DNA from: Actinokineospora auranticolor
Lineage (GTDB): Bacteria > Actinomycetota > Actinomycetes > Mycobacteriales > Pseudonocardiaceae
Length of the DNA stretch: 64,000 nt
Reading direction: 5' to 3'
NCBI RefSeq assembly: GCF_041897805.1
Contig: NZ_CP154825.1
Location: forward strand, 4,786,024 to 4,850,023
Shown here: in pieces, positions 3,373 through 16,106 of the stretch
Position numbering within the stretch: position 1 is the first letter of the stretch
Layout: each line of letters begins with the position of its first letter
Notes under the pieces: model-generated
Told to the model about the DNA's origin: nothing
The model's database searches: none
The model's input: the letters and a program-made list of their open reading frames with translations, nothing else
Made by a program: the position numbers and the translations under genes

Positions 3373-6300
3373 TTATGGGCCGCTGTGGATGAGGGCTGCC
3401 CAGCGGTCCGGGCGTTGGGGGTCGGAGTCTCGGAGTTCGCGGGTGACGTGGCGCAGGGTGGTTGCCGCGTCGGGGGCGGTTGGGCTGTCGGGGAGTCGGT
3501 CGTAGAAGGCGTGGGCGGCCGTGGCGCCGGTTGTGTCGTGCAAGGGCCAGAGGGTGGCGATGACGTGGCGGAAGCCCGCCAGGTGGAAAGCCGACGCGAG
3601 GTGGAGCACCTCGTCGGCGTGGCGGGTGCCGTGGTTGGCCGTCGAGCAGGCGGACAGGTAGGCGAGTTCGGCGTCCGGAAGGTGCAGTCCGCCGATCTCG
3701 GGTAGGAGCACGTCCCGGTCGTGCAGGACCAGTCCGCCCGCTGCGGGCGAGACCGGGTCGGTGATGGCGTGGCAGGCGAAATGCGCCCAAGTCGCCTTGC
3801 CCATGGCCGCCAAGACCGCGTCCCCGGTGGCGGCGGTGTCCACCAGCGTGGTCCCCCGCAGCGACTTGACTTCCTCGGCCGCGGTGGCCAGGTCTTGCGG
3901 CATGGCGACCGCGAGCACACGGCGTTCCGCGGCCGGTGGTCGGGACCGCGCGGCGCGCAGTACGCGCAGTGACGGGGTGTACGACGAGACGACCAGGTCC
4001 AATGCCCCCTGCTCCCCCGGGTGTCCCGCCGCGTGCAAGGGGAGCAGTCCCAGGACGCCAGTGGGCACCCACCAGACGCGGGTGGATGGCAGTGCGCTGA
4101 TGACCGGCCCGACCACGGCGTCCCACAGCCAGGCGAGTGTGTCGAGCAGGACAGGGCGTCGCCGCATCTGCATGGCCAACGAGTTGCCCTGGACGACGTT
4201 GAGCATCGCCGCGACACGGGCCTCCACGTCCACCAGGTCCGGCAGGTCCACCACCACCGGCTCGGCGTCGGAGCGCACCAATACGGCATGCCCACCACGG
4301 CGGTGCGCGCTGACCAGCACGGCCGTGCCCGCCTCGGGGCGCAGCGACCGCTCAGCTGGCTCGGCGAGGAAGTCGCCGAAGCCGGGCAGGTCGCGGATCT
4401 CGGCGAGCAGCTCGTCGTAGTCCCGCCACCAGCGCTTGCGCTCCGAGGTCGGGAAGTCCGGGGTGTTGAGCCGCTCGCACACCCACTCGAACCGGTCGGC
4501 CAGCTGACTCCGCGCGGACCGGAGCTGGGACAGGTCGACCCGGATGCCCGCCTCGGCCGCGAGCAGCACGCCGCGCCCGAGTTCGGCGACGGTGACCGCC
4601 CCGGCCGGGTCCGCCACCGCGCAGCGCGCCGCGACCGCGGCCTGCACCAAGCCCGACTGGGTGCCCAACCGGTCCGCCCAGTCCGCCTCGCGCGGCGGTA
4701 GCGACGGCAACAACCTGATCGCCGCGTCCAACACCGGCACGGCGAGGTCCGGTTCACCGATCGCCAACAGCAGCTCACCCACCGCGTGCTGGGCGGCGAC
4801 CTGGTCGTGCGGAGACGCCGACGGGGCGAGGAACACCTCGTCGGCGAGGGCGCGCACGGTGTCCGCCGGAACGGGAGCGTCGATGCGGGCCGCCTCGAGC
4901 AGGCAGCGGGCGAGTTCCCCCGCTCGCCGAATCCGCCGGGGGTGTTGCGGATCGGCCCGCACCAGCTCCCACGCGCGCTCGCTCGCCGACACCGCTTCGG
5001 CCAGGTGCGCGGCGTCCGGATCGGCGCGGAACCGGGCCAGGTAGGCGTCGGCGAGCACGGCGCGGCGATCCGGCAGGTCGACGTGATCGGTTCCGGTGGC
5101 GGCCACGGCGCCCTCGGCCAACGCCGTGGCCATGGCCAAGTCCCCTTCGGCATCGCGGATTCGCAGGTGGAGGGCAAGTTGCGCTTGGCGGTCGGGCAGC
5201 GACGCACGGCCCGCGCGGGTCGTGCGCACGGCTTGGTCGCCGAGTTCCACCGCCCGGTCGATCTCGGCCCGGTCCTGGGTGGCGAGGTAGCGGGCGTGGT
5301 GGATGCGGGCGGACACCGCCGCGTCCGTTGTCAGGCGGGCCGCGGCGTCCAAGTCGGCGCCTACTCCGTTGCGGGCGTAGCGGGTCAGGTGGATCTCGGC
5401 CAAGACCGCACCGGAGTCGGGGGCGGTGTTGTTCGCCGGGCGTGACCGGTGCGCCCAGGTCGCGTTCTTGACGGCCTGGTGCAGGTCCGCCTCCGCACCC
5501 CCGCCCAGGTAGCGCTGGTGCAGCGCGGCGGCCAGCGCCAGGTGGAGGCCGTGCAGGCGGGGGTGGTGGTCGGGTAGTTCGGCCAGGGTGTCCTTGGCCA
5601 GGGTGACGGCGCGGTCGAGGCTCGAGCGGTCGCCGCGGTGTCGGTACCGCAGCAACAACAGGGCGACGATGTCGGCTGCGGACTCGACGTCCACGGGTGG
5701 GACGACCAGTGTCCACGCGCGGTCGAGGTCGGGCAGGGTGGCGTCGCGTTCGAACCGGCGGGCCAGGGCGATCGCGAGGTGGGTGGACTCGCAGAAGTCG
5801 ATGGCGCGGTCGAGGTGGTTGTCGATACCGGTGTGGTCGTAGAGCAGTCGGTAGGCGACGCCCAGTGCGCCGCGGGCGGAGGGGACGTCGTGCAGGAGCT
5901 CACGTGCGCGCTCCAGGTCGTCCAGGTGGGTGTGGAGTGCGTACCTGTCCAGGTAGGCGCGGGCGAGGGCTTCGATGATCTCCGCGTCGTCTGTCGTGGC
6001 GATCACCCTGTCGCCCAGTTCGATGCCGTGCTCGAGATCAGCCGGGGCGCGTGAGTCCTGGTAGCGGCGCAGGTAGGCGAGGAACAGCACGCGCCTCAAT
6101 TCCGGGGAGCCTGCCGCGTGCGCAGCGACGAGCAGGATGCCTGCCTCCACCAGTTCCGGCTCGAAGCCGTCGAGCAGGCTCGTGCCGACCTCGACCTGGG
6201 TCCGCCGGTCGGCGAAGCGGCCGACGACCGGGGTCAGGTCCGGGGGGATCCGCTGGTGGTCGTCGGCGACCTGGGACAGGCAGATGATCGCCTTGGCGAG

Positions 6301-6534
6301 GTCGATCGGGCGCCGTCGGAACCGGTAGCGGCGGTGGTGGAACTGGCCGAGGACGGTCTTGGCCGCGGTCAGCTGTGCCGCGAGCACCCGTGACCCGCTG
6401 GCGTCGGTCGCCGCGCGCACGGTTCGCCACAGCTTGGTGGACTCCTCCTCGGCGTCGCGGGAGAACGCGGCCGGAAGCGGGTAGCGGACCCAGTCCGCCA
6501 CCCGGTTGATCTGCTCGTCGATCTGCACTCTCAC
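3373..6534 (-). CDS. TPR-repeat protein with C-terminal CHAT (caspase-like) protease domain
   Basis: About 880 aa of degenerate TPR-like repeats (…LDRAVTLAKDTLAELPDHHPRLHGLHLALAAALHQRY…). The C-terminal CHAT domain carries a His (WAHFACHA) and a Cys (LAYLSACSTANHG) dyad. GTG start at 6534 after a GGCGGAG RBS, overlapping the TGA of the upstream WD40 gene (GTGA). The ORF-track N-terminal extension to 6687 is rejected. Confidence 0.85.
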   Translation of the reverse strand: MRVQIDEQINRVADWVRYPLPAAFSRDAEEESTKLWRTVRAATDASGSRVLAAQLTAAKTVLGQFHHRRYRFRRRPIDLAKAIICLSQVADDHQRIPPDLTPVVGRFADRRTQVEVGTSLLDGFEPELVEAGILLVAAHAAGSPELRRVLFLAYLRRYQDSRAPADLEHGIELGDRVIATTDDAEIIEALARAYLDRYALHTHLDDLERARELLHDVPSARGALGVAYRLLYDHTGIDNHLDRAIDFCESTHLAIALARRFERDATLPDLDRAWTLVVPPVDVESAADIVALLLLRYRHRGDRSSLDRAVTLAKDTLAELPDHHPRLHGLHLALAAALHQRYLGGGAEADLHQAVKNATWAHRSRPANNTAPDSGAVLAEIHLTRYARNGVGADLDAAARLTTDAAVSARIHHARYLATQDRAEIDRAVELGDQAVRTTRAGRASLPDRQAQLALHLRIRDAEGDLAMATALAEGAVAATGTDHVDLPDRRAVLADAYLARFRADPDAAHLAEAVSASERAWELVRADPQHPRRIRRAGELARCLLEAARIDAPVPADTVRALADEVFLAPSASPHDQVAAQHAVGELLLAIGEPDLAVPVLDAAIRLLPSLPPREADWADRLGTQSGLVQAAVAARCAVADPAGAVTVAELGRGVLLAAEAGIRVDLSQLRSARSQLADRFEWVCERLNTPDFPTSERKRWWRDYDELLAEIRDLPGFGDFLAEPAERSLRPEAGTAVLVSAHRRGGHAVLVRSDAEPVVVDLPDLVDVEARVAAMLNVVQGNSLAMQMRRRPVLLDTLAWLWDAVVGPVISALPSTRVWWVPTGVLGLLPLHAAGHPGEQGALDLVVSSYTPSLRVLRAARSRPPAAERRVLAVAMPQDLATAAEEVKSLRGTTLVDTAATGDAVLAAMGKATWAHFACHAITDPVSPAAGGLVLHDRDVLLPEIGGLHLPDAELAYLSACSTANHGTRHADEVLHLASAFHLAGFRHVIATLWPLHDTTGATAAHAFYDRLPDSPTAPDAATTLRHVTRELRDSDPQRPDRWAALIHSGP

Positions 6535-8273
6535 TCCGCCAAACGGAGCAGACGAGCCGGGACGTGGTCCACATCGGTCACGGCGAGCACGACACCACCG
6601 TCCATTGTGGTCGTCATGGCCAGTGCGGTCGGGTACGTCTCGCGGCCCGTCACCGAGGCCAGTTCCTCCCCGGACTCGCTGTCCCACACCGCGGTGCGCT
6701 CGCCGTCGGTCACCGCGACCGCGACCCGCAGATCCTCCAGGACCGCCATGGCGAGTTGGCCGTACCTGCCGGGGACGGAGAACGCGCGGATCTCCTCACC
6801 GGTGGACCCATCCCAGACCCGCACCTCCGAGCCGCCGGCGACCCCCACCCGGAACGACCCGTCCGCCAACCCCACAACCGCCACACTCGGCGACTCGATC
6901 CCGAACCCGCCGCGCTCCAGGGTGAACGTGTGCAGGGTCGTCCGCGTGGTCGCGTCCCACACGTGGACGACCGAGCTGGCACCATCATCCGATCCAGCCA
7001 CCACGCAGACGTGCCCGTTCGCGAGCACGAGAGCGTCGAGCGACCACACGATGTGCACGCTCGGCGTGCCAACCTCCCAGTCCACGATCTTGCTTGCTGT
7101 CTCCGGGTCCCACACCACGACGGTCGCGTCGTCCCCACCGGTGATCAACCACGGCACTTCGCCCGGTGGGCAGGCCCAGGTGACGGCGTTGACCGGGCGG
7201 CGGTGCGCCTCGAAGCTCAACAGCGGTCGGCCGTCGCGCACCGCCCACAGCTTGACGAGCCCGTCCTGCCCGCCGGTCGCCAGCACCGCCTCCTCCTCGG
7301 GCAACGGCAACAACGCGGTGGCGAGCACCCGATCACCGTGACCGACGAACTCCTGGCGGGGCATACCGTCGCGGGGACTCCACACGGTCGCGCCGCCGTC
7401 GTCGCCGGAGGCCATCAGCAGGCTGCCGTCGGGGAGGTCGAGGAGCGTCAGCGCGTGCGGCGCGCTGCCGGACGACCAAGACTCGGGCGTCGCGTCGACG
7501 ACCTCCATCGGACCCGGCCCCCAACTCCGCGGGCGGCTGGTCATGCCTCGCACCCGACCGGGTTTCGCCGAGCGGGGGGTCGTGGGAAAGTCGATCGTCG
7601 CGCGGTAGCCGTACATCTCCAGGTGGTCGACGCGGTCCATGACGGCGCCATTCGGGAGTCGGACGAGGTTGTCCGGCATGTCCGAGGCGGAGTCGATGAC
7701 AATCGCGGGGATGTCGCAGGACCGGTACGGGAACTCCTCGCTGCGGTTGGCGTGGACGGTCTCCTCGTACTGGGTCTCCGCCGTGGACCTGTCCGGGTAG
7801 TCGACCACGTAGTAGTCGGAGCCTTCGTCGACTGCGGTCGCCACGGCGTACCGGTCGTCCCCGGTGAGGGGGTCGCGGTAGGCGACCGCGTCGATGAAGC
7901 CACCGAACAGCTCGTGCGCCAGGGTCTGCCGGAAGGTCTCGCCCGCGGCCATGGCCTGCTCGTAGCGTTTCCACCAACTGTCCGCGTGCGTGCCCCAGTG
8001 CCCGTACAGGCACTCGCCCGCGGTGTCGTAGAGCACCCGCGAACCATCCGCGGGGCGCATCGCGGCGAACGGGGCGTCGTCGCACTCCACCTGGACCCAC
8101 ACGCCGTCATGTCCCGCGCGGAGCGCTTGCACGGCGTCCCACGCACTTTGCTTGTCCGGGTAGCGGCGGTGACCGAAACCCGTGTGGTCGACCCGGTACT
8201 CCCCGGCGCGGACGCTGACCCGGATGTGCGCCTCCTCGTCCAGTGGTTTTCGCTTCCGCAGCACCCACTGCAT
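6531..8273 (-). CDS. WD40 β-propeller protein with ~270-aa uncharacterised N-terminal domain
   Basis: C-terminal repeats (ASGDDGGATVWSPRDG, ATGGQDGLVKLWAVRDG, TGGDDATVVVWDPETAS, AGSDDGASSVVHVWDATT…) are WD40 blades. ATG at 8273 (MQWVLRKRKPL…) avoids a 92-nt overlap with the upstream membrane-protein gene. Confidence 0.8.
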   Translation of the reverse strand: MQWVLRKRKPLDEEAHIRVSVRAGEYRVDHTGFGHRRYPDKQSAWDAVQALRAGHDGVWVQVECDDAPFAAMRPADGSRVLYDTAGECLYGHWGTHADSWWKRYEQAMAAGETFRQTLAHELFGGFIDAVAYRDPLTGDDRYAVATAVDEGSDYYVVDYPDRSTAETQYEETVHANRSEEFPYRSCDIPAIVIDSASDMPDNLVRLPNGAVMDRVDHLEMYGYRATIDFPTTPRSAKPGRVRGMTSRPRSWGPGPMEVVDATPESWSSGSAPHALTLLDLPDGSLLMASGDDGGATVWSPRDGMPRQEFVGHGDRVLATALLPLPEEEAVLATGGQDGLVKLWAVRDGRPLLSFEAHRRPVNAVTWACPPGEVPWLITGGDDATVVVWDPETASKIVDWEVGTPSVHIVWSLDALVLANGHVCVVAGSDDGASSVVHVWDATTRTTLHTFTLERGGFGIESPSVAVVGLADGSFRVGVAGGSEVRVWDGSTGEEIRAFSVPGRYGQLAMAVLEDLRVAVAVTDGERTAVWDSESGEELASVTGRETYPTALAMTTTMDGGVVLAVTDVDHVPARLLRLAE

Positions 8274-8295
8274 GACCGGCTCGTGCTCCACGCGC

Positions 8296-9174
8296 TCACC
8301 GTCCCTTTCGGACCAAAGCGGTGATCTCCCGCCCTTGATCGATGGTGAGGACCCCCGTCTCCTCCTGGTCGCCGACACCGAGGGCACGGGCCAGGGTGCG
8401 CCCGTGCAGATCGACGGCGGCCTCCGACAACACCGTCAGCTCGGCGATGGCGTGGCGCCCCTTGGCCCACCCGGTGGCACCGAACACCAGACCGATCACG
8501 GCGGCGGGCCACCACCACGCGGCGAGCACGAGGTAGGGCAGGCTCCACGTGCCGGTCGCCACCGCCGCGGCGAACGTCGACTCCGCCGCGGTGATCTCCG
8601 CGCGGACCGTGTCGGGTAGCACCAACCACAACCGCGACCAACCGAACGCCAAGTCGACGCCGAACCGGTTCAGCGCCACCTGTTCCACCGCGTGCACCCG
8701 GTCGCCCATCCAGGTCGGACGACCCGGCTCGGCCATCGCGATCCGGTTGGCCCGCTCGGCGAACCGGTCGACCTTCGCCTGCCGGTCGGGGTCGTCCCGG
8801 TCGACCGCCGCCCGTTTCTCGACCAGGGACAGCCACCGCCGCCTGCGCGCCGCCGCACGTAGACGCCGCACGGGACCCGGCCAGCGGCCGAGCCAGACCG
8901 CCCTGGTCAGCCCGGCGAGACCTTGTACAGCGAAGCCGATCCCGGCCGAGGCGAGGAGCAACGCCAGCACGGCGGTAACCTGGCCGCCGACCTGGAGGCG
9001 CAGCGCCGTCACGGCGTCCAGCCCCTGTCGCGCCCTGGTCCAGTCGAGCGCGAGCCGCTGGCCCTGCCACAGCGCGAGCGCGGCGAGCAAGATGAACAGC
9101 GCGCCGGGCAGGACCAGCAACGCCATCCAGCGCTCGGCCAGCTTCTTGGCCAGCTCCTCGAAGAACTTGCCCAC
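8296..9174 (-). CDS. Polytopic membrane protein, unknown function
   Basis: Several hydrophobic helices (ALLVLPGALFILLAALALW, VTAVLALLLASAGIGFAV, WSLPYLVLAAWWWPAAVIGLVFGATGW). Inside the 9174–9210 overlap, GC3 strongly favours the upstream small-ORF frame. A GTG start at 9174 (VGKFFEELAKK…) sharing one base with the upstream TAG is therefore preferred over ATG 9210. Confidence 0.6.
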   Translation of the reverse strand: MGKFFEELAKKLAERWMALLVLPGALFILLAALALWQGQRLALDWTRARQGLDAVTALRLQVGGQVTAVLALLLASAGIGFAVQGLAGLTRAVWLGRWPGPVRRLRAAARRRRWLSLVEKRAAVDRDDPDRQAKVDRFAERANRIAMAEPGRPTWMGDRVHAVEQVALNRFGVDLAFGWSRLWLVLPDTVRAEITAAESTFAAAVATGTWSLPYLVLAAWWWPAAVIGLVFGATGWAKGRHAIAELTVLSEAAVDLHGRTLARALGVGDQEETGVLTIDQGREITALVRKGR

Positions 9175-9530
9175 TACAGGCGCCTCATGCGCAGGCCGAG
9201 CAACGCGCACCGGGGCGGTTCACCCGCCGGAACCGTTCGCGCACGGTGGTTGCAACTGTCGTCGGGACAGCCGAAGACCTCGTCGTCGGCTCGACCCCCG
9301 CCCGCGCCGGGCAGGCCGGTGGCGGGGCCTCGGCGCGCTTCCACAATGTCCTCGGGGTCGCACTCGAGCAGTTGCGAGACGAGCCTGGCCACCGGGCGGC
9401 GGGAGGCGGCCTCGACCTCTATGCGGTCCAGCAGCGCCTTGCGGTCCGCCGACAGGTTCGCGCATTCCTGGCGCAGCTCGGGCAACCCCGCGCAGAGCAT
9501 GGTCAGCACATCCCGCTCGAACCTGTCCAC
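9174..9530 (-). CDS. Small Cys-rich hypothetical protein (~118 aa)
   Basis: GTG at 9530 preceded by GGGAGGA with a 4-nt spacer. GC3 is near 100% through the region that overlaps ORF 8296..9210. Six Cys, including the C-P-D-D-S-C-N-H cluster. No recognisable family. Confidence 0.45.
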   Translation of the reverse strand: MDRFERDVLTMLCAGLPELRQECANLSADRKALLDRIEVEAASRRPVARLVSQLLECDPEDIVEARRGPATGLPGAGGGRADDEVFGCPDDSCNHRARTVPAGEPPRCALLGLRMRRL

Positions 9531-10850: not shown

Positions 10851-11672
10851 GTGTTTGAGAACGTTGGTGATCTTCAGGCGTTGGATGACGCGGTGGTGGC
10901 GTTGAGTGCGTTGAGGGAAGTGGCGCCCATAGGGCTTCCCGAGCGGGTCGAGGCGGTGGAGAACCTCGGTGTGTTGCTGCGGCTGCGGTTTGAGCGGCTT
11001 GGCGACCTCGACGACATCACCAGGTCCGTCGAAGCGCACCGGGAAGTGCTGGCGATCCTGTCACCCGACGATCCGACTTATCCTCGGCAGCAGGCTCAGC
11101 TTGCCAGTGCGCTGATGCCTCGGGGTGTCGCCACCACCGATCGGGGCGACTGCGAGGAAGCGCTGGGGTTGTGGCAGGACGCTCTTGCGGCGCTGCCGCC
11201 CGGTCATCCTGACGCGGGCCGCCACCGCCAGCTTGTGGGTGTGGGGCTTTCGGTACGGGCGGAGGTGTTCGGGTCGCTCCCCCATCGCAATGCGGCGGTT
11301 GCGTTTTGGCGGGCGGCGCTGGGCACTACCGAACCTGGGTCGCCTCAGCGGTTCATCGCTCGCGAGATGTTGGGGGCGAACCTGTTGGGTCGGTTCGCCG
11401 AGTTCACTGCCGATGCCGACCTGGCTGAAGCTCTCGCGGTGGCGCGGGACGCGCTCGCGGACGCGGGCCCCGAGCACCGCCTTCAGGCGACTCGCTCGCT
11501 CTGCAGTGCCCTTGACGCGCGGTTTCGGCGGTTCGGGGTTCGTGAAGACCTTGACGAACTCATCGAGCAGGGTGAGGTCGTACTGCACCTCATGCCCGCC
11601 GAGCACCCGGACCGGCCCGCTCACGAGCAGGGCATGGTCCACGCCCGCGCGCTACGCGACGATCGGGCCTAG
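10851..11672 (+). CDS. Stand-alone TPR-repeat protein (resembles the N-terminal repeat region of CHAT proteins)
   Basis: 273 aa of repeats of the type LGVLLRLRFERLGDLDDITRSVEAHREVL / LGANLLGRFAEFTADADLAEALAVARDAL. GTG start. The stop shares the palindromic CTAG with the convergent NTPase gene. Confidence 0.6.
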   Translation: MFENVGDLQALDDAVVALSALREVAPIGLPERVEAVENLGVLLRLRFERLGDLDDITRSVEAHREVLAILSPDDPTYPRQQAQLASALMPRGVATTDRGDCEEALGLWQDALAALPPGHPDAGRHRQLVGVGLSVRAEVFGSLPHRNAAVAFWRAALGTTEPGSPQRFIAREMLGANLLGRFAEFTADADLAEALAVARDALADAGPEHRLQATRSLCSALDARFRRFGVREDLDELIEQGEVVLHLMPAEHPDRPAHEQGMVHARALRDDRA

Positions 11673-14600
11673 CCCACTCTGCCGATCACGGACTCGACTG
11701 ATATCCGGGCCCACACCGCGCTCAATGTCGCGACGATCAGGGCGGCGGCGAAGGTTATCCAGAGCCCTGGGTCGGTCACGATGCGGTCGAACCAGGTGAT
11801 GGCGGCGATGCCGAGTAGCAGCACCGCCGATTTGGTGTCCGTGCAGACCGCGAATACCGAGAACGGCACGGTCGCGTAGTCGCTGCGTAGCGCGAACATC
11901 AAGGCCGACAGCACGGCGACCGCCACGACCAAGGCGGTGGCGATGGTGACCGGCACGGCGCCCCGCACAGCTGTGAAGACCCCGACGGCGGTGTACAGCG
12001 CGGCGGGCACCAGCAGCCGCAGGCCGAGCCACCTCGACGCGGTGTGTGAGCGGCGCAGCACCTCCCGGGTCCGCGCCAGTTCCGGATCGGGCCGTGGTGG
12101 TGCGGGGATGATCGGGAGGAGTTCGATCAGCTCCAGCGCGTCGGCGATGTCGTCCGGGGAGGCCGATAGGGAACGCAGCAGCGCCAACGATTCTTCGGCC
12201 TCACGTAGAGCCGCGTCGCGGTCGCCGCCCGCGCGCGCGGTGGCCAATGCCGACAACCGCAGCGTCCTGGCCAGGGGCAAGGTGAACGCGGCGGGTTCGG
12301 CGGCGGCCAGTGCTCGGTGTCGGACGACCGCGTCCTTGAGGATGGTGGCCGCCTCGGTGTGCTCGCCCTGTCGGTACAGCACCGCGCCCAGCCGGGCCGA
12401 TCCGTGTGCCACGTCGAACTCGAAGCCCTCCTCCACCGCGGCCAAGTCCCGGTAGCGCGCCAGCGACTCGCGCAGCACGGTCACCGCCTCGGGGACGCGG
12501 TCGAGTTCCGCCAGCAGCTCGCCGTGGTTGGCCAGCGCCCTCGCCAGGTGCGGCCGGAACACCTCGGGGACCGCGGCGGCCAGCGGTCGCAGCGCGGCGA
12601 TCGCGTCCACCCCCGTCGCGAGCGCCTCGGTCGACCGACCCGACGCGGCCAGCGCGAGGCTCAGGTTGACCAGTGCCGTGGCCAGGCTCCCGGCGGAGTC
12701 CGCGGTGTCCGCCTCGACGAGCGACCGGCACAGCCGTACCGACTCGGTGAGCGCCGCCACCGCCTCGGCCGGGCGGCCCGCGTCCACCAGCGCCAGGCCG
12801 TGGGCGGTGAGGGCCTTGTCCAACCGCCGCGTGCCCGCGAGTTCGCCCGCGTCGAGCAGGGCGCGGCTCAGCTCGACGGCCTCCGCCGCGGCGGTGACGG
12901 CGTCGGTGGGTCTGCCGTTCTCGGTCAGCCTGGCGCCCAAGTCGCTTAGCGCGGCGGCGAGACCGGCCGTCTCGCGCTCGGGGTCGCGCGCGGCCAGTCG
13001 TCTGCGCAGCGCCACCACTTCCGCGGCGACCGCGAGTGCCTCGGCCGGGCGACCGGCGGTCGCCAGGTCGGTGGCGTGGTTTCCCAACGCGATCGCGAGC
13101 CGGGGTTCGAACCGGTCCGGGTAGGTCGCGGCCGGGCCGCGCAGGCCCGCCACGGCCTCCCCCGCCGTCCGCACCGCGTCGGCGCGCCTGCCCGCGCGCG
13201 CCTGCGCGACCGCCAGGGCGGCGCGCGCCTCGGCCAGGCTCACCGCGTGCGCGGTCGGGTTGCGTTCGGCCTCCACGCGGAAGATGGCCACGGCCTCCTC
13301 CGCCGCGTCCACGGCCTCTTGGGGCCGCTGCGCGGTGGCGAGCCGGTCCGCGAGGTGGGTCAGCGTGACGGCCAGGTGGACGCGTTGGGTGCTGTTGTCC
13401 TCGGTGGCGACGCCGCGGAACAGGGCGACGGCCTCGACGGTCGACTCCAGCGCCGCCGGGTGCCGGTCCGCGTCCGCCAACGCCGTCCCGAGGTCGCCCA
13501 GGGCGATGGCCAGGTCGGGCGTGTGGACGAGCCGGTTCGCCTCGACCAGTTCACGCAGCAGCGCGACCCGCTCCTCGAACACCGCGACCGCCGCCGCCCA
13601 CTCCCCCTTGTCCCTCAGGCGAGTGCCGTGAACGCGCAGCAGCGCCACGGACTCGTCGGGGGACTCGTCGGGGTCTCGCGGCAGCGCGATCGCCTCGTCG
13701 GAGACGGCTTCCGCCTCCCGCACCCGGCCCACGGCCGTGTAGTGGCTCGCCAGGTTCCCCAACGACCGGGACAGTGCGACGGCGAACCGTTCCGGGTCGA
13801 CGGCGAAGAGCGCGCGGTGCGCCGCCACCGCTTCCTCCCCGAGCCGCACGGCTTCGTCGCGGCGGCCCAGGCTCGCCATGGCGATGCCCAGGTTGTCCAC
13901 GCCCGCCGCCAAGGTGCCCGCGTGGGCGTCGGGATCGGCGGCGTGCAGTTCGCGGCGCAGCGCCACGCACTCGGTGAACGCCGCCAGCGCCTCGTCGAAC
14001 CGGTCCGCGGCGAGCAATCGGGACCCGAGCGCGCCGTACAACACCGCTTTGGTCGCGAGATCGGTCTCCTCGACCAGCCTACGTCCGATGTGGACATTGG
14101 CCACCGCGGCGACCCCGGCCGCCAGGTCCGGGTCGACCGCGGCGGGGAACCGTTCGATGATGCCGGTCAGCGTGGTCTGGTCGATCCCCGGAATGGTCGC
14201 GACCACGCCCAACGCGCCACTGCCCGCCGCCACGGCCAGGTGCGGATCACGGCGCAGCAGGGGAAGCAACAACGTCTCGGCGACGTGCGGCCAGCGGTGC
14301 GCCGCGGCGGCCAGGAACGTGACCGCGCGGGGTGTCCAGTCGGCGGGCTCACGGCTCGTCGGCACCCGCGCGAGGACCGCCCGCGCCGTCTCGGCCGCCC
14401 AGGGCGCGGCCGGGTGGTCCGCGTCGTGGCCCGGCAGGGTGAGCGCGAGGAAGTCCTCGGCCAGGCGGTCCGGGTAGAGCGGTTCCAGGGCCGCGCCGTC
14501 CTCCGGCGGGTAGCACGCGGCGTGGTCGCCGACGGCGTCGTCCGGCAGGTCCAGGCGGTCGGCGACGACGCGCTCGGCGGCGGCGAGGGGTTGGGCGCCG

Positions 14601-15562
14601 GTCAGCGTCGCGGTGAACACGACCCGGTGCATGGCCTCGGGGGTCGTGCGGTAGCCGTCGCGGCGTTCGTGCATGAGGTGCCAGTGCAGGTGTTCGCGGT
14701 CGAGCAGGTACGCGGTCGTGCCCGCCAGGTCGGCGGGCGGGGTGCGACTGGCCGCGTGCGCGTCCACGGCGACCAAGGCCGTCATGTGCACGGCGAGCGT
14801 GAGACCGAACTCGGGGTTGCCGTCGAGGTCGGGTGGCTGCCGCACGTCCGCCGGGTCAATCAGGTCGTAGTAGGGGGCGAAGGCGTCGCGGGCGGCGGTG
14901 AACATGGTCGTGCGGTCGGCCGGTGGCAGGGTCGTGAGCGCCGAAGAGGACGTCCGGGAGCGCAACGCGACCAACGCGCCGCGCACGGCGGGCCAGGCGG
15001 TGTCGGTTCGGGCGATCAGCAGCAGCCGGGTCCGCGTGCCGGGTTGGGCGAACAGCGCGTTGCTCAGCAGCCACCGCAGGTGGGTTTGCGGCCACTGGTC
15101 GGCGTAGTCGACGACCAGCAGCACCCCGGCCTTCCCGTCGACACGCAGGTCCTGGCTGCCCGGCGCGACGGCGACGGCCCCCGGGCCGTGGGTGGCGGTG
15201 ACGACCAGCCAGCCCGCCGCGTCGGACTCGGCCGCGAGCCGGTCGGCGAGACGGGTCTTACCCGCGCCGCCGGGGCCGTGCAACCAGTGCGCGGCGAGGT
15301 CGCCGTCCGCGTCGCGCCAGGCCCGGAGCCGGTCGAGTTCGTCGGCGCGGCTGGTGAACCCGACCACCGCGCTGCGGGCGTGCAGCAGTCGGCTGGGGAC
15401 CTCCCGCAGCCACGCGTCGGGTGGGGGCGTCGGCGGTGACCAGCGCCGGAGCAGGTACAGCGGCGCGCCGTCGCCCAGGACGTGGATGTCCGCGCCGATC
15501 ACGCCGTAGGCGAAGCCGCCGGTGGCGGTCACGTGCTGGACGGCGCCGTCCGCGGCCGTCAC
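11669..15562 (-). CDS. STAND-type P-loop NTPase with TPR array and C-terminal 4-TM domain
   Basis: Starts at a GTG overlapping the TGA of the upstream small gene (VTAADGAVQHVTATGGFAYGVIGADIHV…). Walker A is WLHGPGGAGKTRLADRL. Walker B-like motif is GVLLVVDYADQW, followed by TRLLLIARTDTAWP. About 13 TPR units follow (…AIALGNHATDLATAGRPAEALAVAAEVVALRRRL…). Four hydrophobic helices sit at the C-terminus (WLGLRLLVPAALYTAVGVFTAV…LSAVWARISV). The ORF-track extension to 17269 is read-through into the opposite-strand ROK gene and is rejected. Confidence 0.8.
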   Translation of the reverse strand: MTAADGAVQHVTATGGFAYGVIGADIHVLGDGAPLYLLRRWSPPTPPPDAWLREVPSRLLHARSAVVGFTSRADELDRLRAWRDADGDLAAHWLHGPGGAGKTRLADRLAAESDAAGWLVVTATHGPGAVAVAPGSQDLRVDGKAGVLLVVDYADQWPQTHLRWLLSNALFAQPGTRTRLLLIARTDTAWPAVRGALVALRSRTSSSALTTLPPADRTTMFTAARDAFAPYYDLIDPADVRQPPDLDGNPEFGLTLAVHMTALVAVDAHAASRTPPADLAGTTAYLLDREHLHWHLMHERRDGYRTTPEAMHRVVFTATLTGAQPLAAAERVVADRLDLPDDAVGDHAACYPPEDGAALEPLYPDRLAEDFLALTLPGHDADHPAAPWAAETARAVLARVPTSREPADWTPRAVTFLAAAAHRWPHVAETLLLPLLRRDPHLAVAAGSGALGVVATIPGIDQTTLTGIIERFPAAVDPDLAAGVAAVANVHIGRRLVEETDLATKAVLYGALGSRLLAADRFDEALAAFTECVALRRELHAADPDAHAGTLAAGVDNLGIAMASLGRRDEAVRLGEEAVAAHRALFAVDPERFAVALSRSLGNLASHYTAVGRVREAEAVSDEAIALPRDPDESPDESVALLRVHGTRLRDKGEWAAAVAVFEERVALLRELVEANRLVHTPDLAIALGDLGTALADADRHPAALESTVEAVALFRGVATEDNSTQRVHLAVTLTHLADRLATAQRPQEAVDAAEEAVAIFRVEAERNPTAHAVSLAEARAALAVAQARAGRRADAVRTAGEAVAGLRGPAATYPDRFEPRLAIALGNHATDLATAGRPAEALAVAAEVVALRRRLAARDPERETAGLAAALSDLGARLTENGRPTDAVTAAAEAVELSRALLDAGELAGTRRLDKALTAHGLALVDAGRPAEAVAALTESVRLCRSLVEADTADSAGSLATALVNLSLALAASGRSTEALATGVDAIAALRPLAAAVPEVFRPHLARALANHGELLAELDRVPEAVTVLRESLARYRDLAAVEEGFEFDVAHGSARLGAVLYRQGEHTEAATILKDAVVRHRALAAAEPAAFTLPLARTLRLSALATARAGGDRDAALREAEESLALLRSLSASPDDIADALELIELLPIIPAPPRPDPELARTREVLRRSHTASRWLGLRLLVPAALYTAVGVFTAVRGAVPVTIATALVVAVAVLSALMFALRSDYATVPFSVFAVCTDTKSAVLLLGIAAITWFDRIVTDPGLWITFAAALIVATLSAVWARISVESVIGRVG

Positions 15563-15894
15563 CGGTGCTCCCGACCTGGGCCCGCCGGGTGGTTGACGAT
15601 GTCGCCGCCGATCACGCCCTGCGCGATCCCGCCCCCGGACGCCGTGATGGTCTGGGTCGGCGCGGGCGCCCGCCGGGACTGCGCCAGGGTCACGACCAGC
15701 GACACCAGCCCCAGCACGAGCGACGCGCCGCCGATGAACATGCTCACCACGCTCGCCTGCGAGTCCCGCTCGTCCAGTGGCAGCCGGAAGTACCCGACCA
15801 GCGCGCGGACCAGCCACACCCCGGCCACGACCACCACCGCTGTGGCGACCGCCGCGCCGATCACCCAGACCCGTCTCCGGTTCGCCACCCGCAC
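15559..15894 (-). CDS. Small 2-TM membrane protein whose C-terminal tail repeats the NTPase N-terminal motif
   Basis: 111 aa with a GTG start. Two hydrophobic helices, then …ITASGGGIAQGVIGGDIVNHPAGPG at the C-terminus. Its stop overlaps the NTPase start (GTGA). Confidence 0.6.
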   Translation of the reverse strand: MRVANRRRVWVIGAAVATAVVVVAGVWLVRALVGYFRLPLDERDSQASVVSMFIGGASLVLGLVSLVVTLAQSRRAPAPTQTITASGGGIAQGVIGGDIVNHPAGPGREHR

Positions 15895-16106
15895 CTCCGG
15901 CCGTCGTTGTCTCGATCATGCACGGTTCGCGCGCGCCGGTGGGCGGTATGCGCGGAACGCACCCGCGCGTTCGAGTGGTCGGGATTCCCGGGCCGGTCGG
16001 GAAACACCCCCCGAACGGCCCAAGCGCCTGGTGCGCGGTCCGGCGCAAGTGGTTCCGCGCTGTGGACGCGGGTTCCGCGCGCGGCGGATCGTGCGAGCAT
16101 CGGGGG

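Follow-up and report, generated by a model that had tools for sequence, protein, structure and literature searches.

A motif shared by a two-helix membrane hairpin protein and its NLR-like neighbour in Actinokineospora auranticolor suggests a BASS-type receptor/effector cassette

In Actinokineospora auranticolor (Pseudonocardiaceae), a small gene and a large gene for an NLR-like protein, both on the minus strand, carry the same short peptide motif, and we consider it fairly probable, largely by analogy with characterized systems, that the two form a receptor/effector cassette of the BASS type. Homotypic templating would here act on a membrane hairpin that is already inserted and that occupies the place of the usual Bell domain; the amyloid step and the killing are what we infer from such systems. 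The layout as such is already known, and what is new is that this motif, in this NLR clade, is combined with a minimal partner that is predicted to be constitutively membrane-inserted. A ∼110-aa 'hypothetical protein' and a 'tetratricopeptide repeat protein' in the annotation may then be read as one functional cassette.

The small open reading frame spans 15559..15894 (111 codons) if read from its first GTG. A start at the GTG at 15888, five bases downstream of a GGAGG, is more probable, and the NCBI annotation also gives a 109-aa product (V5P93_004219, Actinokineospora auranticolor). A spurious frame is ruled out by the GC3 of 0.93, the Shine–Dalgarno sequence, and the conserved family and synteny. 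The stop codon of this gene and the GTG of the NLR gene overlap as GTGA, as the sequence-only reading had noted; a 4-bp ATGA/GTGA overlap is found likewise in the related loci L001, L002, L003 and L004/L005, and translational coupling is its probable role. The overlapping GTG opens a frame of 1297 codons that ends at 11669, and it is the better NTPase start since Q9 and V11 of the resulting protein are invariant among relatives. That protein begins VTAADGAVQH, with the core motif from residue 11; the same reading had the NTPase open with VTATGG, which is incompatible with a start at the overlapping GTG.

Table 1. Features of the two-gene locus. Positions refer to the window, the whole 64-kb stretch of DNA that was analysed; aa, residues of the respective protein.
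Feature	Position	Strand	Basis
Small gene (putative effector), 109 aa	15559..15888	−	ORF; GGAGG at 15894-15898; NCBI call; GC3 0.93; 16 homologous clusters
Predicted transmembrane helix 1, aa 7-31, after basic N-terminus MANRRR	15796..15870	−	Kyte–Doolittle segment 9-27; AlphaFold helix 2-34, pLDDT 84-91; positive-inside rule
Inter-helix loop GYFRLPLDERDSQASV	15748..15795	−	family alignment
Predicted transmembrane helix 2, aa 48-70, then basic QSRR	15679..15747	−	hydropathy; AlphaFold; flanking charges
Effector-side motif TQTITASGGGIAQGVIGGDIVNH, aa 78-100 (core 15595-15648)	15589..15657	−	BASS6-like; AlphaFold low-confidence, no regular structure
GTGA start/stop overlap	15559..15562	−	small-gene TGA (15559-15561) shares bases with NLR GTG (15560-15562)
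NLR-like gene, 1297 aa	11669..15562	−	N-terminal motif; P-loop NOD; TPR array; C-terminal hydrophobic extension
NLR-side motif VQHVTATGGFAYGVIGADIHVLGDGAPLYLL, aa 8-38 (core 15479-15532)	15449..15541	−	clade conservation; profile match to effector tails; AlphaFold
Nucleotide-binding oligomerisation module (NOD), aa 45-461	14180..15430	−	sequence; AlphaFold pLDDT 93, pTM 0.91; Foldseek
Walker A, GPGGAGKT	15254-15277	−	sequence
Walker B, VLLVVDYAD	15098-15124	−	sequence
TPR array, ∼aa 500-1150	12113..14065	−	Pfam TPR_12, E 1.3e-24; TPR_10, E 3.9e-23
C-terminal extension, aa 1175-1297, about four hydrophobic transmembrane-like segments	11672..12040	−	hydropathy, segments 1181-1279

The AlphaFold model of the small protein consists of two long helices only (residues 2–34 and 38–73, pLDDT 81–91), followed by a low-confidence tail without regular structure. 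The basic flanks and the neutral or acidic loop predict an N-in/C-in hairpin whose motif tail is cytoplasmic. In the family alignment the loop (Y/F-x-R-x-P-L-x-x-Q-D-x-x-A-S-V) is the most conserved part of the family and, as its net charge is about zero or negative throughout the family, it is probably extracytoplasmic. The family is rare, with 16 clusters among 1.84 billion representatives in an exhaustive HMMER search; a word-indexed protein search returned only the protein itself when queried with the small protein, and only two proteins when queried with the family alignment, since its candidate list fills up with hydrophobic words. Other P-loop NTPases carry the hairpin domain as a direct N-terminal fusion, in P-loop/repeat proteins of 1268 and 1029 aa. 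Comparison of the small protein with Pfam and NCBIfam gave nothing significant, and Foldseek with the hairpin model gave no match below E = 8.9.

Bell domains are bundles of five helices, ∼100 aa long, in which the N-terminal helix is hydrophobic and position 2–3 is acidic. The small protein, with its two helices and its basic MANRRR start, does not fit this description. A divergent Bell domain is ruled out by hhalign and by a Bell HMM. The hairpin family has no detectable relationship to the Bell N-domain (hhalign probability 0.2%), and the HMM, which recognized published Bell fragments with E-values of 1.3e-12, 3.1e-8 and 2.2e-5, did not match the small protein even when filters were switched off and E-values as high as 10 were allowed.

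The neighbouring protein has the attributes of a STAND/NLR protein, namely Walker A and B motifs, STAND-type fold matches and TPR repeats downstream of the NOD; the TPR array is presumed to be the sensor part. The best Foldseek matches of the NOD model include NLRP2, MalT, Avs5 (EfAvs5), NRC4, ZAR1 and Apaf-1, with E-values of 1e-6 to 3e-4 and TM-scores of only 0.3–0.4. No NB-ARC or NACHT model of Pfam matched the NOD, for which Pfam and NCBIfam gave nothing significant, and a PDB sequence search gave matches at the level of the P-loop only; relatives of the NLR have precomputed Pfam assignments to PF25199 (nSTAND_NTPase5) or PF13191 (AAA_16). Neither the NLR nor the small protein matched a PADLOC defence model at E up to 0.01.

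The hydrophobic C-terminal extension of the NLR is coding, as judged from its GC3 of 0.90, and non-coding read-through was rejected on this ground. It is missing from five relatives that adjoin hairpin genes, and TM-rich C-termini occur in only 2 of 80 other NLR relatives, which rules it out as a family feature; homology with the TM-rich ends in L057 and L083 was also rejected. The picture of two membrane-embedded partners is particular to this locus.

The peptide shared by the small membrane protein and the adjacent NTPase, first noticed in the sequence alone, is real. The two cores, ITASGGGIAQGVIGGDIV (15595-15648) in the small protein and VTATGGFAYGVIGADIHV (15479-15532) in the NLR, which carries VQHVTATGGFAYGVIGADIHV from residue 8, show 11 identities over 18 columns with one gap; the number of identities had been put slightly too high, at about 12. 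On the effector side the motif is not at the very C-terminus, as had been supposed, but is followed by 11 further residues (NHPAGPGREHR). This motif, ITASGGGIAQGVIGGDIVNH, contains six G, four I, two V, one Q and one N; K, P and L are absent from it, and the linkers on either side are Pro-rich. The pair has a BLOSUM62 local score of 56, compared with 22.6 ± 4.5 for shuffled termini, a score reached in one of 5000 shuffles of the termini and in none of 5000 when both were shuffled. Profile comparisons gave hhalign probabilities of 94.8% (E 4.8e-8) for hairpin tails against NLR N-termini, 94% (E 1.4e-7) for Bell tails against NLR N-termini, and 97.2% (E 3.3e-11) for hairpin tails against Bell tails. 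When a loose form of the motif was searched in six frames through the 64-kb window, these two copies were the only ones in real genes; there was one further match, which is chance-like.

Related loci were retrieved with the NLR alignment. The NLR clade is large and actinobacterial: it comprises 225 protein clusters, its genomic loci number 351 or more, relatives occur in Streptomyces, Micromonospora and Saccharopolyspora, among others, and its N-terminal motif is conserved. The motif pair recurs across genera at all related loci examined, and at eight of eight loci that encode relatives of the small protein the neighbouring gene is for an NLR of this clade and both partners bear the motif. Absence of the motif from orthologous loci and lack of conservation of the small ORF, which the sequence-only reading had named as grounds for abandoning the pair, were both looked for, and neither was found. 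A census of partners at 80 loci gave a Bell protein at 65, a two-helix hairpin at three, another motif-bearing protein (including TIR_2 and CHAT) at six, and none at the remaining six. The motif is C-terminal on the Bell, hairpin and TIR proteins and N-terminal on the CHAT proteins, and there are Bell proteins, as at L043, that carry two motifs in tandem. A second type of tail, VQIGTAxDGGRLFxVAxGDVHxH, is present at L003, L005, L050 and L051; against the NLR motif it scores 18–28, near the shuffle baseline. A search for strong co-evolution between the motifs of individual loci found weak support only, the matching of cognate against non-cognate partner motifs giving p = 0.04 for 8 loci and ∼0.013 for 57 loci.

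A homotypic adaptor logic, in which one module is found on both a STAND NTPase and its effector, was reportedly set out by Kaur, Iyer, Burroughs and Aravind in 2021. Effector-associated and bacterial death-like domains resemble the present element in this respect, the same module being on the NTPase and on the effector. However, they are globular alpha-helical domains of ∼80–100 residues, whereas the element shared here has 20–30 residues and is modelled either without regular structure (effector) or as partly beta (NLR); no domain was found in it with Pfam or NCBIfam. The proposal of a homotypic adaptor survives as a coupling segment, given the motif-matched Bell, hairpin, TIR and CHAT partners within the same clade, but not as a member of the death-like or effector-associated class.

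In BASS, the effector ends in a short, beta-prone motif of ∼25 aa and the NLR starts with a related one (Dyrka et al., 2020, bioRxiv 10.1101/2020.01.06.895854; PMC8086366). The pairs are collinear in 91% of cases and have overlapping ORFs in 42%, the genes being typically ≤10 bp apart or overlapping, and the motifs are rich in G/N/Q/V/I and poor in K/P/L (Dyrka et al., 2020). Paired motifs, adjacent collinear genes, the NLR architecture, the motif composition and a filamentous host are all found here. Actinokineospora and the genera of the relatives are filamentous. BASS6/Bell–NLR pairs likewise combine a NOD + TPR receptor with collinear, often overlapping genes in a filamentous actinomycete host, and the effector-side motif is a near-match to published effector-side instances such as ETTIEQHITASGQNSTAQGVIGGTITNHPFP; near-matches listed as BASS6 are A0A1G6LK47, A0A0M8VPA8 and A0A0B5F1K7. 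The usual partner in this NLR clade is Bell, whereas here it is a hairpin with no detectable relationship to Bell. Published BASS6 pairs are of the ASGERSIAAxxIGTAVTGD type (PMC8086366). The NLR-side motif GFAYGVIGADIHVFGDG is not among the 346 published BASS pairs, and in the BASS supplementary and test sets it matched the negative set only. The census of partners suggests that a large pair class of this NLR clade is under-represented in the published BASS pair tables, probably because its two sides differ by indels of one or two residues. A bolder reading would make the GFAYGVIGADIHVF/WVQHVTAxGxGxAxG class, whose loci number 351 or more, a sizeable family of amyloid-signalling pairs that the published lists overlooked.

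For BASS1 and BASS3, prion and fibril formation has been shown, with the NLR side seeding the effector side; in the literature that we found, amyloid formation is described for BASS1, BASS3 and BASS11 only, and for no BASS6-type motif. In E. coli, Bab/Agp (BASS11) brings about abortive infection (Ibarlosa et al., 2024, bioRxiv 10.1101/2024.11.07.622273), during which the Bell-type Bab moves to the cell periphery, with membrane alterations (10.1101/2024.11.07.622273). As in the pair described here, a ∼109-aa effector with a C-terminal motif adjoins a large TPR sensor that bears the counterpart motif at its N-terminus; this effector works at the membrane, and the system provides an experimental precedent for the mechanism that we propose. 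Its motif family is a different one, and Bab, a 'Babybell' of five helices, is soluble and keeps a hydrophobic helix buried, whereas the small protein here is predicted to be a constitutive membrane hairpin. In fungal HET-S/NWD2 and NLR/HeLo pairs, the N-terminal motif of the receptor templates the C-terminal motif of the effector, which then acts on the membrane. The same templating logic holds for these pairs and for the RHIM of RIPK1/RIPK3; no sequence relationship to any of them was found. All of these systems are eukaryotic, and HeLo/Hell domains are soluble until activated, whereas the hairpin would already be in the membrane. Small multi-TM effectors of the CBASS and Pycsar type are thought to kill by membrane disruption after a sensor has been triggered. 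Their trigger is a nucleotide second messenger acting on a cytoplasmic domain, whereas the motif tail is the sole predicted cytoplasmic feature of the hairpin protein. Transmembrane effectors are mentioned in a further report (10.64898/2026.08.12.744502).

By analogy with BASS1, BASS3, BASS11 and HET-S/NWD2, a ligand bound to the TPR array would cause nucleotide-dependent oligomerisation of the NLR. The oligomer would gather the N-terminal motifs into a beta-arch (cross-beta) nucleus, and this nucleus would template the tails of hairpin proteins resident in the membrane. The growing fibre would align and pack the hairpins, thereby damaging the membrane and leading to arrest or death of the cell, which in a filamentous actinomycete might be, for example, an abortive infection or a non-self response. 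Through the 4-bp overlap, the small protein and the NLR would be made in a coupled manner. Several observations count against this templating model: part of the NLR-side motif is modelled as ordered beta strands; the hairpin would be permanently membrane-bound, unlike Bell and HeLo, whose hydrophobic helix stays hidden until activation; locus-specific matching of the motifs is weak; the second tail type is near baseline; and PADLOC gave no match.

Amyloid signalling from NLRs to effectors of cell death is well established for fungi, and E. coli has recently provided a demonstrated case; for actinomycetes the argument is built chiefly on bioinformatics and on Bell-domain effectors. If the hairpin is the executioner, polymerisation of a cytoplasmic tail alone would turn a resident membrane protein into a lesion, a logic simpler than the release of a hidden helix by HeLo, Bell or MLKL. 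A bolder form of the same reading, which we put forward tentatively and with some doubt, is that the hairpin represents a new class of amyloid-gated membrane effector (an 'amyloid-nucleated holin'), permanently in the membrane and harmless as a monomer, whose tails would be zipped by the NLR-nucleated fibre, forcing the hairpins into a linear, lesion-forming array; with it would go a fold-switch trigger, formed by the NLR-side motif as a beta hairpin docked on the NOD until activation, and a missed class of pairs.

The motif could also act by homotypic docking without amyloid, a reading that we consider unlikely. The tail would mimic the N-terminal beta hairpin of the NLR and bind 1:1, by beta-augmentation or strand exchange, with either the NOD or the NLR motif as its target; the small protein would thereby be recruited or released, and no self-propagating cross-beta polymer would be involved. 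In the AlphaFold model, NLR residues ∼19–40 are indeed ordered strands packed with the NOD (motif strands 19–22 and 36–40, pLDDT 73–90), and from these ordered strands, with pLDDT up to 90, we surmise that the NLR-side motif at rest may be docked on the NOD rather than forming a free amyloid-prone tail. This motif leads without a break into an invariant stretch, P34/Y36/L38, and its conservation far exceeds that of the effector tails; the weak partner-specific covariation would also suit docking. Against this, the effector-side motif falls inside a published amyloid-signalling family, and the composition and length of the motif suit beta-arch motifs. The motif is, moreover, portable between protein ends and partner types, and can be present twice in a single Bell protein. 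Portability, tandem motifs and composition fit better with a self-contained polymerising unit than with a docking groove.

A role for the two-helix protein other than killing, as a membrane anchor or negative regulator that would tether or sequester the NLR through the shared motif, strikes us as quite improbable. Membrane location may matter for this NLR, which has a hydrophobic extension of its own, the hairpin at the NTPase N-terminus of P0013 and P0016 could be a mere anchor, and Pfam, NCBIfam and Foldseek reveal no recognizable catalytic or pore-forming signature in the hairpin. However, the slot that the hairpin occupies is otherwise held, in the same clade, by the effector-type modules Bell, TIR_2 and CHAT, the NLR N-terminus is the site of the effector domain in 'all-in-one' architectures, and the related Bell-type Bab goes to the cell periphery, with membrane alterations, in abortive infection.

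Chance similarity between Gly-rich, low-complexity segments of a high-GC genome merits almost no credence. In its favour are the shortness of the motifs, their richness in G/A/V/I and the 12 of 1000 shuffles of the whole small protein against the whole NTPase that reach the score, but it is refuted by the comparative data, with recurrence at all related loci and profile E-values of 5e-8 to 1e-7, as well as by the rarity of the score among shuffled termini (≤1/5000) and the restriction of in-gene copies in the window to these two. Just as hard to credit is a similarity that has no functional meaning and was left by recent local duplication of the DNA, or by gene conversion over the junction of the two genes; the two DNA copies do have a 13-nt identical core, GGCGTGATCGGCG, but conservation of the two-sided motif across genera and the codon comparison refute such an origin, since four of the 11 identical residues have different synonymous codons, and the seven codons that are shared are simply the dominant ones of this genome (GGC 70%, ATC 86%, GAC 95%).

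The small effector gene and the NTPase gene both lie on the minus strand, which corrects the sequence-only reading, and their GTGA overlap suggests that they are translationally coupled. For the small ORF, 15894 is a less likely start than the GTG at 15888, which follows a GGAGG by five bases. It gives a 109-aa product, in agreement with the NCBI call (hypothetical protein V5P93_004219, Actinokineospora auranticolor), composed from N to C of MANRRR, a hydrophobic helix, a loop (GYFRLPLDERDSQASV), a second hydrophobic helix, QSRRAPAP, TQTITASGGGIAQGVIGGDIVNH and PAGPGREHR. For the NTPase, the overlapping GTG is favoured over an internal GTG because positions 9 (Q) and 11 (V) are invariant among its relatives. 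The sequence-only reading had proposed this start, and a motif common to the C-terminus of the small protein and the N-terminus of the NTPase. Both proposals were borne out, with 11 identities and one gap between the two 18-residue motif cores, but with translation from the overlap the NTPase copy does not begin until residue 11, and 11 residues trail the copy in the small protein.

Features of the gene pair and its surroundings in the window
Feature	Coordinates	Strand	Remarks
Small effector ORF	15559..15894	-	open reading frame
GTGA start/stop overlap	15559-15562	-	TGA of the small gene shares bases with the NTPase GTG
NTPase ORF	from GTG in the GTGA overlap to 11669	-	1297 codons; N-terminus VTAADGAVQHVTATGGFAYGVIGADIHVLGDGAPLYLL
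NLR C-terminal extension	11672-12040	-	~120 residues, about four hydrophobic TM-like segments; GC3 0.90
CHAT protein	3373-6795	-	1140 aa; C-terminal CHAT (caspase-like) domain, E 5.8e-44
WD40-repeat protein	6531-8435	-	
304-aa ORF	8296-9210	-	unassigned; overlaps the start of the WD40 ORF
ORF with TPR_10 match	10851-11672	+	E 9e-6

The local alignment scored 56, compared with 22.6 ± 4.5 for shuffled termini; this score was reached by 1 of 5000 shuffles, and by none of 5000 when both termini were shuffled, which rules out chance similarity. Across the 64-kb window, a six-frame scan for a loose form of the motif matched only the two copies in real genes and one unrelated-looking stretch. A duplication scar is ruled out by the codons: synonymous codons differ at 4 of the 11 identical residues and the seven common ones are the genome's dominant codons. 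The similarity is therefore maintained at the protein level.

Bacterial amyloid signalling sequences (BASS) are motifs of ~25 residues that a small effector (in most cases a helical 'Bell' domain) carries at its C-terminus and an adjacent NLR at its N-terminus; the gene pairs are 91% collinear and 42% overlapping, and are almost confined to prokaryotes that are filamentous or multicellular in some other way (Dyrka et al., bioRxiv 10.1101/2020.01.06.895854). Fibrils and prions are formed by both BASS1 and BASS3, with the NLR side seeding the effector side, and in E. coli the BASS11 pair Bab/Agp acts as a system of abortive infection. Effector-side sequences of BASS6 (internal name C09) in follow-up datasets include ETTIEQHITASGQNSTAQGVIGGTITNHPFP, RQTTTQHITASGSNSLAQGVIGGNIYHTGAS and APQVRQNIIASGQNATAQGVVGGSIHNHAAP (PMC8086366). 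By its sequence, the effector-side motif of the window, TQTITASGGGIAQGVIGGDIVNHP, plainly belongs to this subtype, and the window pair is an instance of the BASS kind of system; PADLOC models gave no match to it. The sequence-only reading is partly supported: its homotypic adaptor survives as a segment for homotypic coupling, though one of the BASS amyloid-signalling type and not a death-like adaptor fold.

The large protein carries Walker A (GPGGAGKT) and Walker B (VLLVVDYAD) motifs and a long TPR array (TPR_12, E 1.3e-24; TPR_10, E 3.9e-23). Residues 1–461 gave a confident AlphaFold model (pLDDT 93, pTM 0.91), whose top Foldseek matches were the STAND proteins NLRP2, MalT, EfAvs5, NRC4, ZAR1 and Apaf-1, with other AAA+ proteins alongside. 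Pfam models of the nucleotide-binding oligomerisation module (NOD) did not match the window protein; its relatives carry precomputed PF25199 (nSTAND_NTPase5) or AAA_16 matches. The motifs, array, model, structural matches and Pfam families of the relatives support its designation as a STAND/NLR-like NTPase.

The small protein had no significant match in Pfam or NCBIfam. Hydropathy indicates two transmembrane segments, and an AlphaFold model from the family alignment has long helices at 2–34 and 38–73 (pLDDT 81–91) and a tail of low confidence that lacks regular structure. Family members have basic flanks at the N-terminus and after helix 2, and a neutral or acidic loop; by the positive-inside rule the topology is probably N-in/C-in, so that the motif-bearing tail is predicted to lie on the cytoplasmic side, with the NTPase. 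HMMER, run exhaustively against 1.84 billion cluster representatives, yielded no more than 16 clusters (E ≤ 1e-3). Conservation among them covers the hairpin domain, which follows the pattern RRxxW, helix, Y/F-x-R-x-P-L-x-x-Q-D-x-x-A-S-V-x-S-M-F-I-G, helix, Q-L-R-R. The region C-terminal to the hairpin differs among them: it is a BASS6-like tail in clusters P0002, P0005, P0011, P0012, P0014 and P0015, and in P0003, P0004 and P0006 a second tail type, VQ[VI]GTAxDGGRLFxVAxGDVHxH, with weak resemblance to the NLR motif (scores 18–28). P0013 (1268 aa) and P0016 (1029 aa) have the hairpin fused directly to a P-loop NTPase with Walker A/B motifs and, after it, repeats, the 'all-in-one' layout typical of NLR effector domains. 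P0007, P0008 and P0009 (140–179 aa) have no BASS-like tail, and their segment after the hairpin resembles the P0013/P0016 linker (…LGVHQAI…); they may be split or truncated forms of the fusion.

We compared eight loci encoding hairpin-family members (L001–L008; L004 and L005 encode the same protein). The sequence-only reading had proposed looking for loss of the motif or of the small ORF at orthologous loci, and the outcome favours the finding: an NLR of the window's clade adjoins the hairpin gene in all eight, and the motif stands at the N-terminus of each of these NLRs (such as VTASSGFAYGAVGADVHVFGDG and VTATGGVAYGVVGADLHVYGDG). The genes share a 4-bp ATGA/GTGA overlap in L001, L002, L003 and L004/L005, are separated by 54 bp in L008, and are divergently oriented in L007. 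L006 has an intact NLR from 1389 and also, at 960–1400, directly after the hairpin gene and in another frame, a degenerate NLR start (QQAIATARFAYGMNAGDLHRRPDGSPVYLL), so that the receptor gene may have undergone turnover or duplication. Cognate motifs matched each other only slightly better than non-cognate ones (p = 0.04, 8 loci; z = 2.3, p about 0.013, 57 loci). Scores of cognate pairs averaged 30, against 20 ± 4 after shuffling, and the window pair, with 56, is at the upper end of their range.

The NOD region has 225 protein relatives (E ≤ 1e-10), all from actinomycetes and most with the N-terminus ...VQNVTAxxGFAYGVIGADIHVFGDGxPLYLL; scanning a single genome for each species gave at least 351 loci of the clade. 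In the best 80 of these, partners within 4 kb were classed with HMMs built in this analysis. The partner was a ~150-aa helical domain in 65, the two-helix hairpin in three (L021, L050, L051) and another motif-bearing protein in six, with none found within 4 kb in the other six; it lay directly upstream on the same strand in 66. The ~150-aa domain starts like LEExLTALALTGATTVVAAMATDAW and ends [WF]VQH[VI]TAxGxGxAFG[AV]xGGxIxxH. Its HMM, with tails left out, matches published Bell fragments (E 1.3e-12, 3.1e-8 and 2.2e-5), identifying it by sequence as Bell. Among the six other motif-bearing partners, a TIR_2 protein (L052, 2991–3968; E 2e-7) has the motif C-terminally, and CHAT proteins have it N-terminally, in a gene downstream of the NLR in L024 (7050–7823; E 3e-10) and upstream in L047 (2974–3783). 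Also among the six, L044 (3449–3922) encodes a different small two-TM protein with the motif, which the hairpin HMM does not recognise.

Profile–profile comparison related hairpin tails to NLR N-termini (probability 94.8%, E 4.8e-8), Bell tails to NLR N-termini (94%, E 1.4e-7) and the two tail sets to each other (97.2%, E 3.3e-11). The hairpin itself has no detectable kinship with Bell (hhalign probability 0.2%; the Bell HMM does not match the window protein). What emerges is a single receptor clade and a single portable motif with interchangeable effector heads, the window's head being a rare one. A Bell-type protein in L043 (3357–3974) carries the canonical BASS6 motif (ERSAAIGVDTTGIVSSGD) and then a IQNITASGPGTSAYGAMSGDVVHH motif in tandem, linking the two BASS6 subtypes on one effector. 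The NLR relative P0030 (746 aa) has the NLR-side motif twice in tandem within residues 1–70 (RAESGFAYGAIG..., RAENGFAYGVVDADIHVFGDG), and P0068 (568 aa), in which the NTPase is joined directly to a Bell-like N-terminus, is an all-in-one form. In P0056 (510 aa; record marked partial) an NLR N-part is joined to a MurJ flippase domain, which may be an assembly or annotation artefact.

In the supplementary table of 346 pairs from Dyrka et al. (bioRxiv 10.1101/2020.01.06.895854), those of BASS6 have the ASGERSIAAxxIGTAVTGD form; YGVI, GADI, GVIG and VFGDG do not occur in it, and the NLR-side motif is not in the NLR-side test set of PMC8086366. BASS6 profiles thus caught the effector-side subtype, and the pairing of a BASS6-like tail with an NLR motif of the window type appears to be previously unlisted. 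Indels of one or two residues between the two sides are a plausible reason, given that motifs in the published screen were gapless (Dyrka et al., bioRxiv 10.1101/2020.01.06.895854). Non-Bell partners listed in the papers searched are alpha/beta-hydrolase, TIR2, CHAT, guanylate cyclase, EAD7, NACHT and NB-ARC. In BASS-related literature, of which our coverage was incomplete, we found no mention of a transmembrane-hairpin effector with a BASS motif, although one may have been described earlier, and the BASS literature searched contained no experimental work on a BASS6-type motif. New here, then, are the effector head and an NLR-side motif class absent from published pair tables; the motif family and architecture are known. 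A specialist would regard this as an expected extension, yet it offers a simple test of tail polymerisation arming a resident membrane protein.

The analysis shows directly how the pair is built, that its members share a motif, that partners are swapped as modules, that a membrane hairpin is predicted and that the NTPase has a STAND fold. By analogy with BASS1, BASS3, BASS11 and HET-S/NWD2, the TPR array would detect a ligand, the NOD would then oligomerise, and the clustered NLR N-terminal motifs would form a beta-arch nucleus that templates the effector tails. The motif reads naturally as three short strands with the turns GG(G), G[GA]D and GDG between them. Because the hairpins are already membrane-inserted, the polymer would align and crowd them and so damage the membrane. 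A non-amyloid mechanism of strand docking is also compatible with the data, as AlphaFold models the NLR-side motif partly as ordered strands (19–22, 36–40; pLDDT 73–90). In the amyloid scheme, the modelled motif may be docked on the NOD at rest, which is compatible with release upon activation.

The C-terminal extension of the window NLR is judged coding from its GC3, and its hydrophobic segments suggest that this NLR may itself be membrane-anchored. This would be an unusual, locus-specific trait and not a property of the system: the extension is absent in five relatives adjoining hairpin genes, and TM-rich C-termini occur in only 2 of 80 other relatives, L057 (Catellatospora paridis) and L083 (Streptomyces sp. 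McG3), neither with significant sequence similarity to the window extension.

Upstream of the pair, in the opposite direction, are genes for a ROK-family regulator and a luciferase-like monooxygenase. The CHAT and WD40 genes lie three to eight kb downstream of the NLR; they and the 304-aa ORF lack the motif and look like another conflict-type system. Between 9000 and 12000 the GC content is 0.65–0.69, against 0.73–0.76 around it, and ORFs have a weak codon-position signal; the ORF with the TPR_10 match may be a remnant of another NLR. The CHAT and WD40 genes, the lower-GC, weakly coding stretch and the TPR-like remnant fit a conflict-system region.
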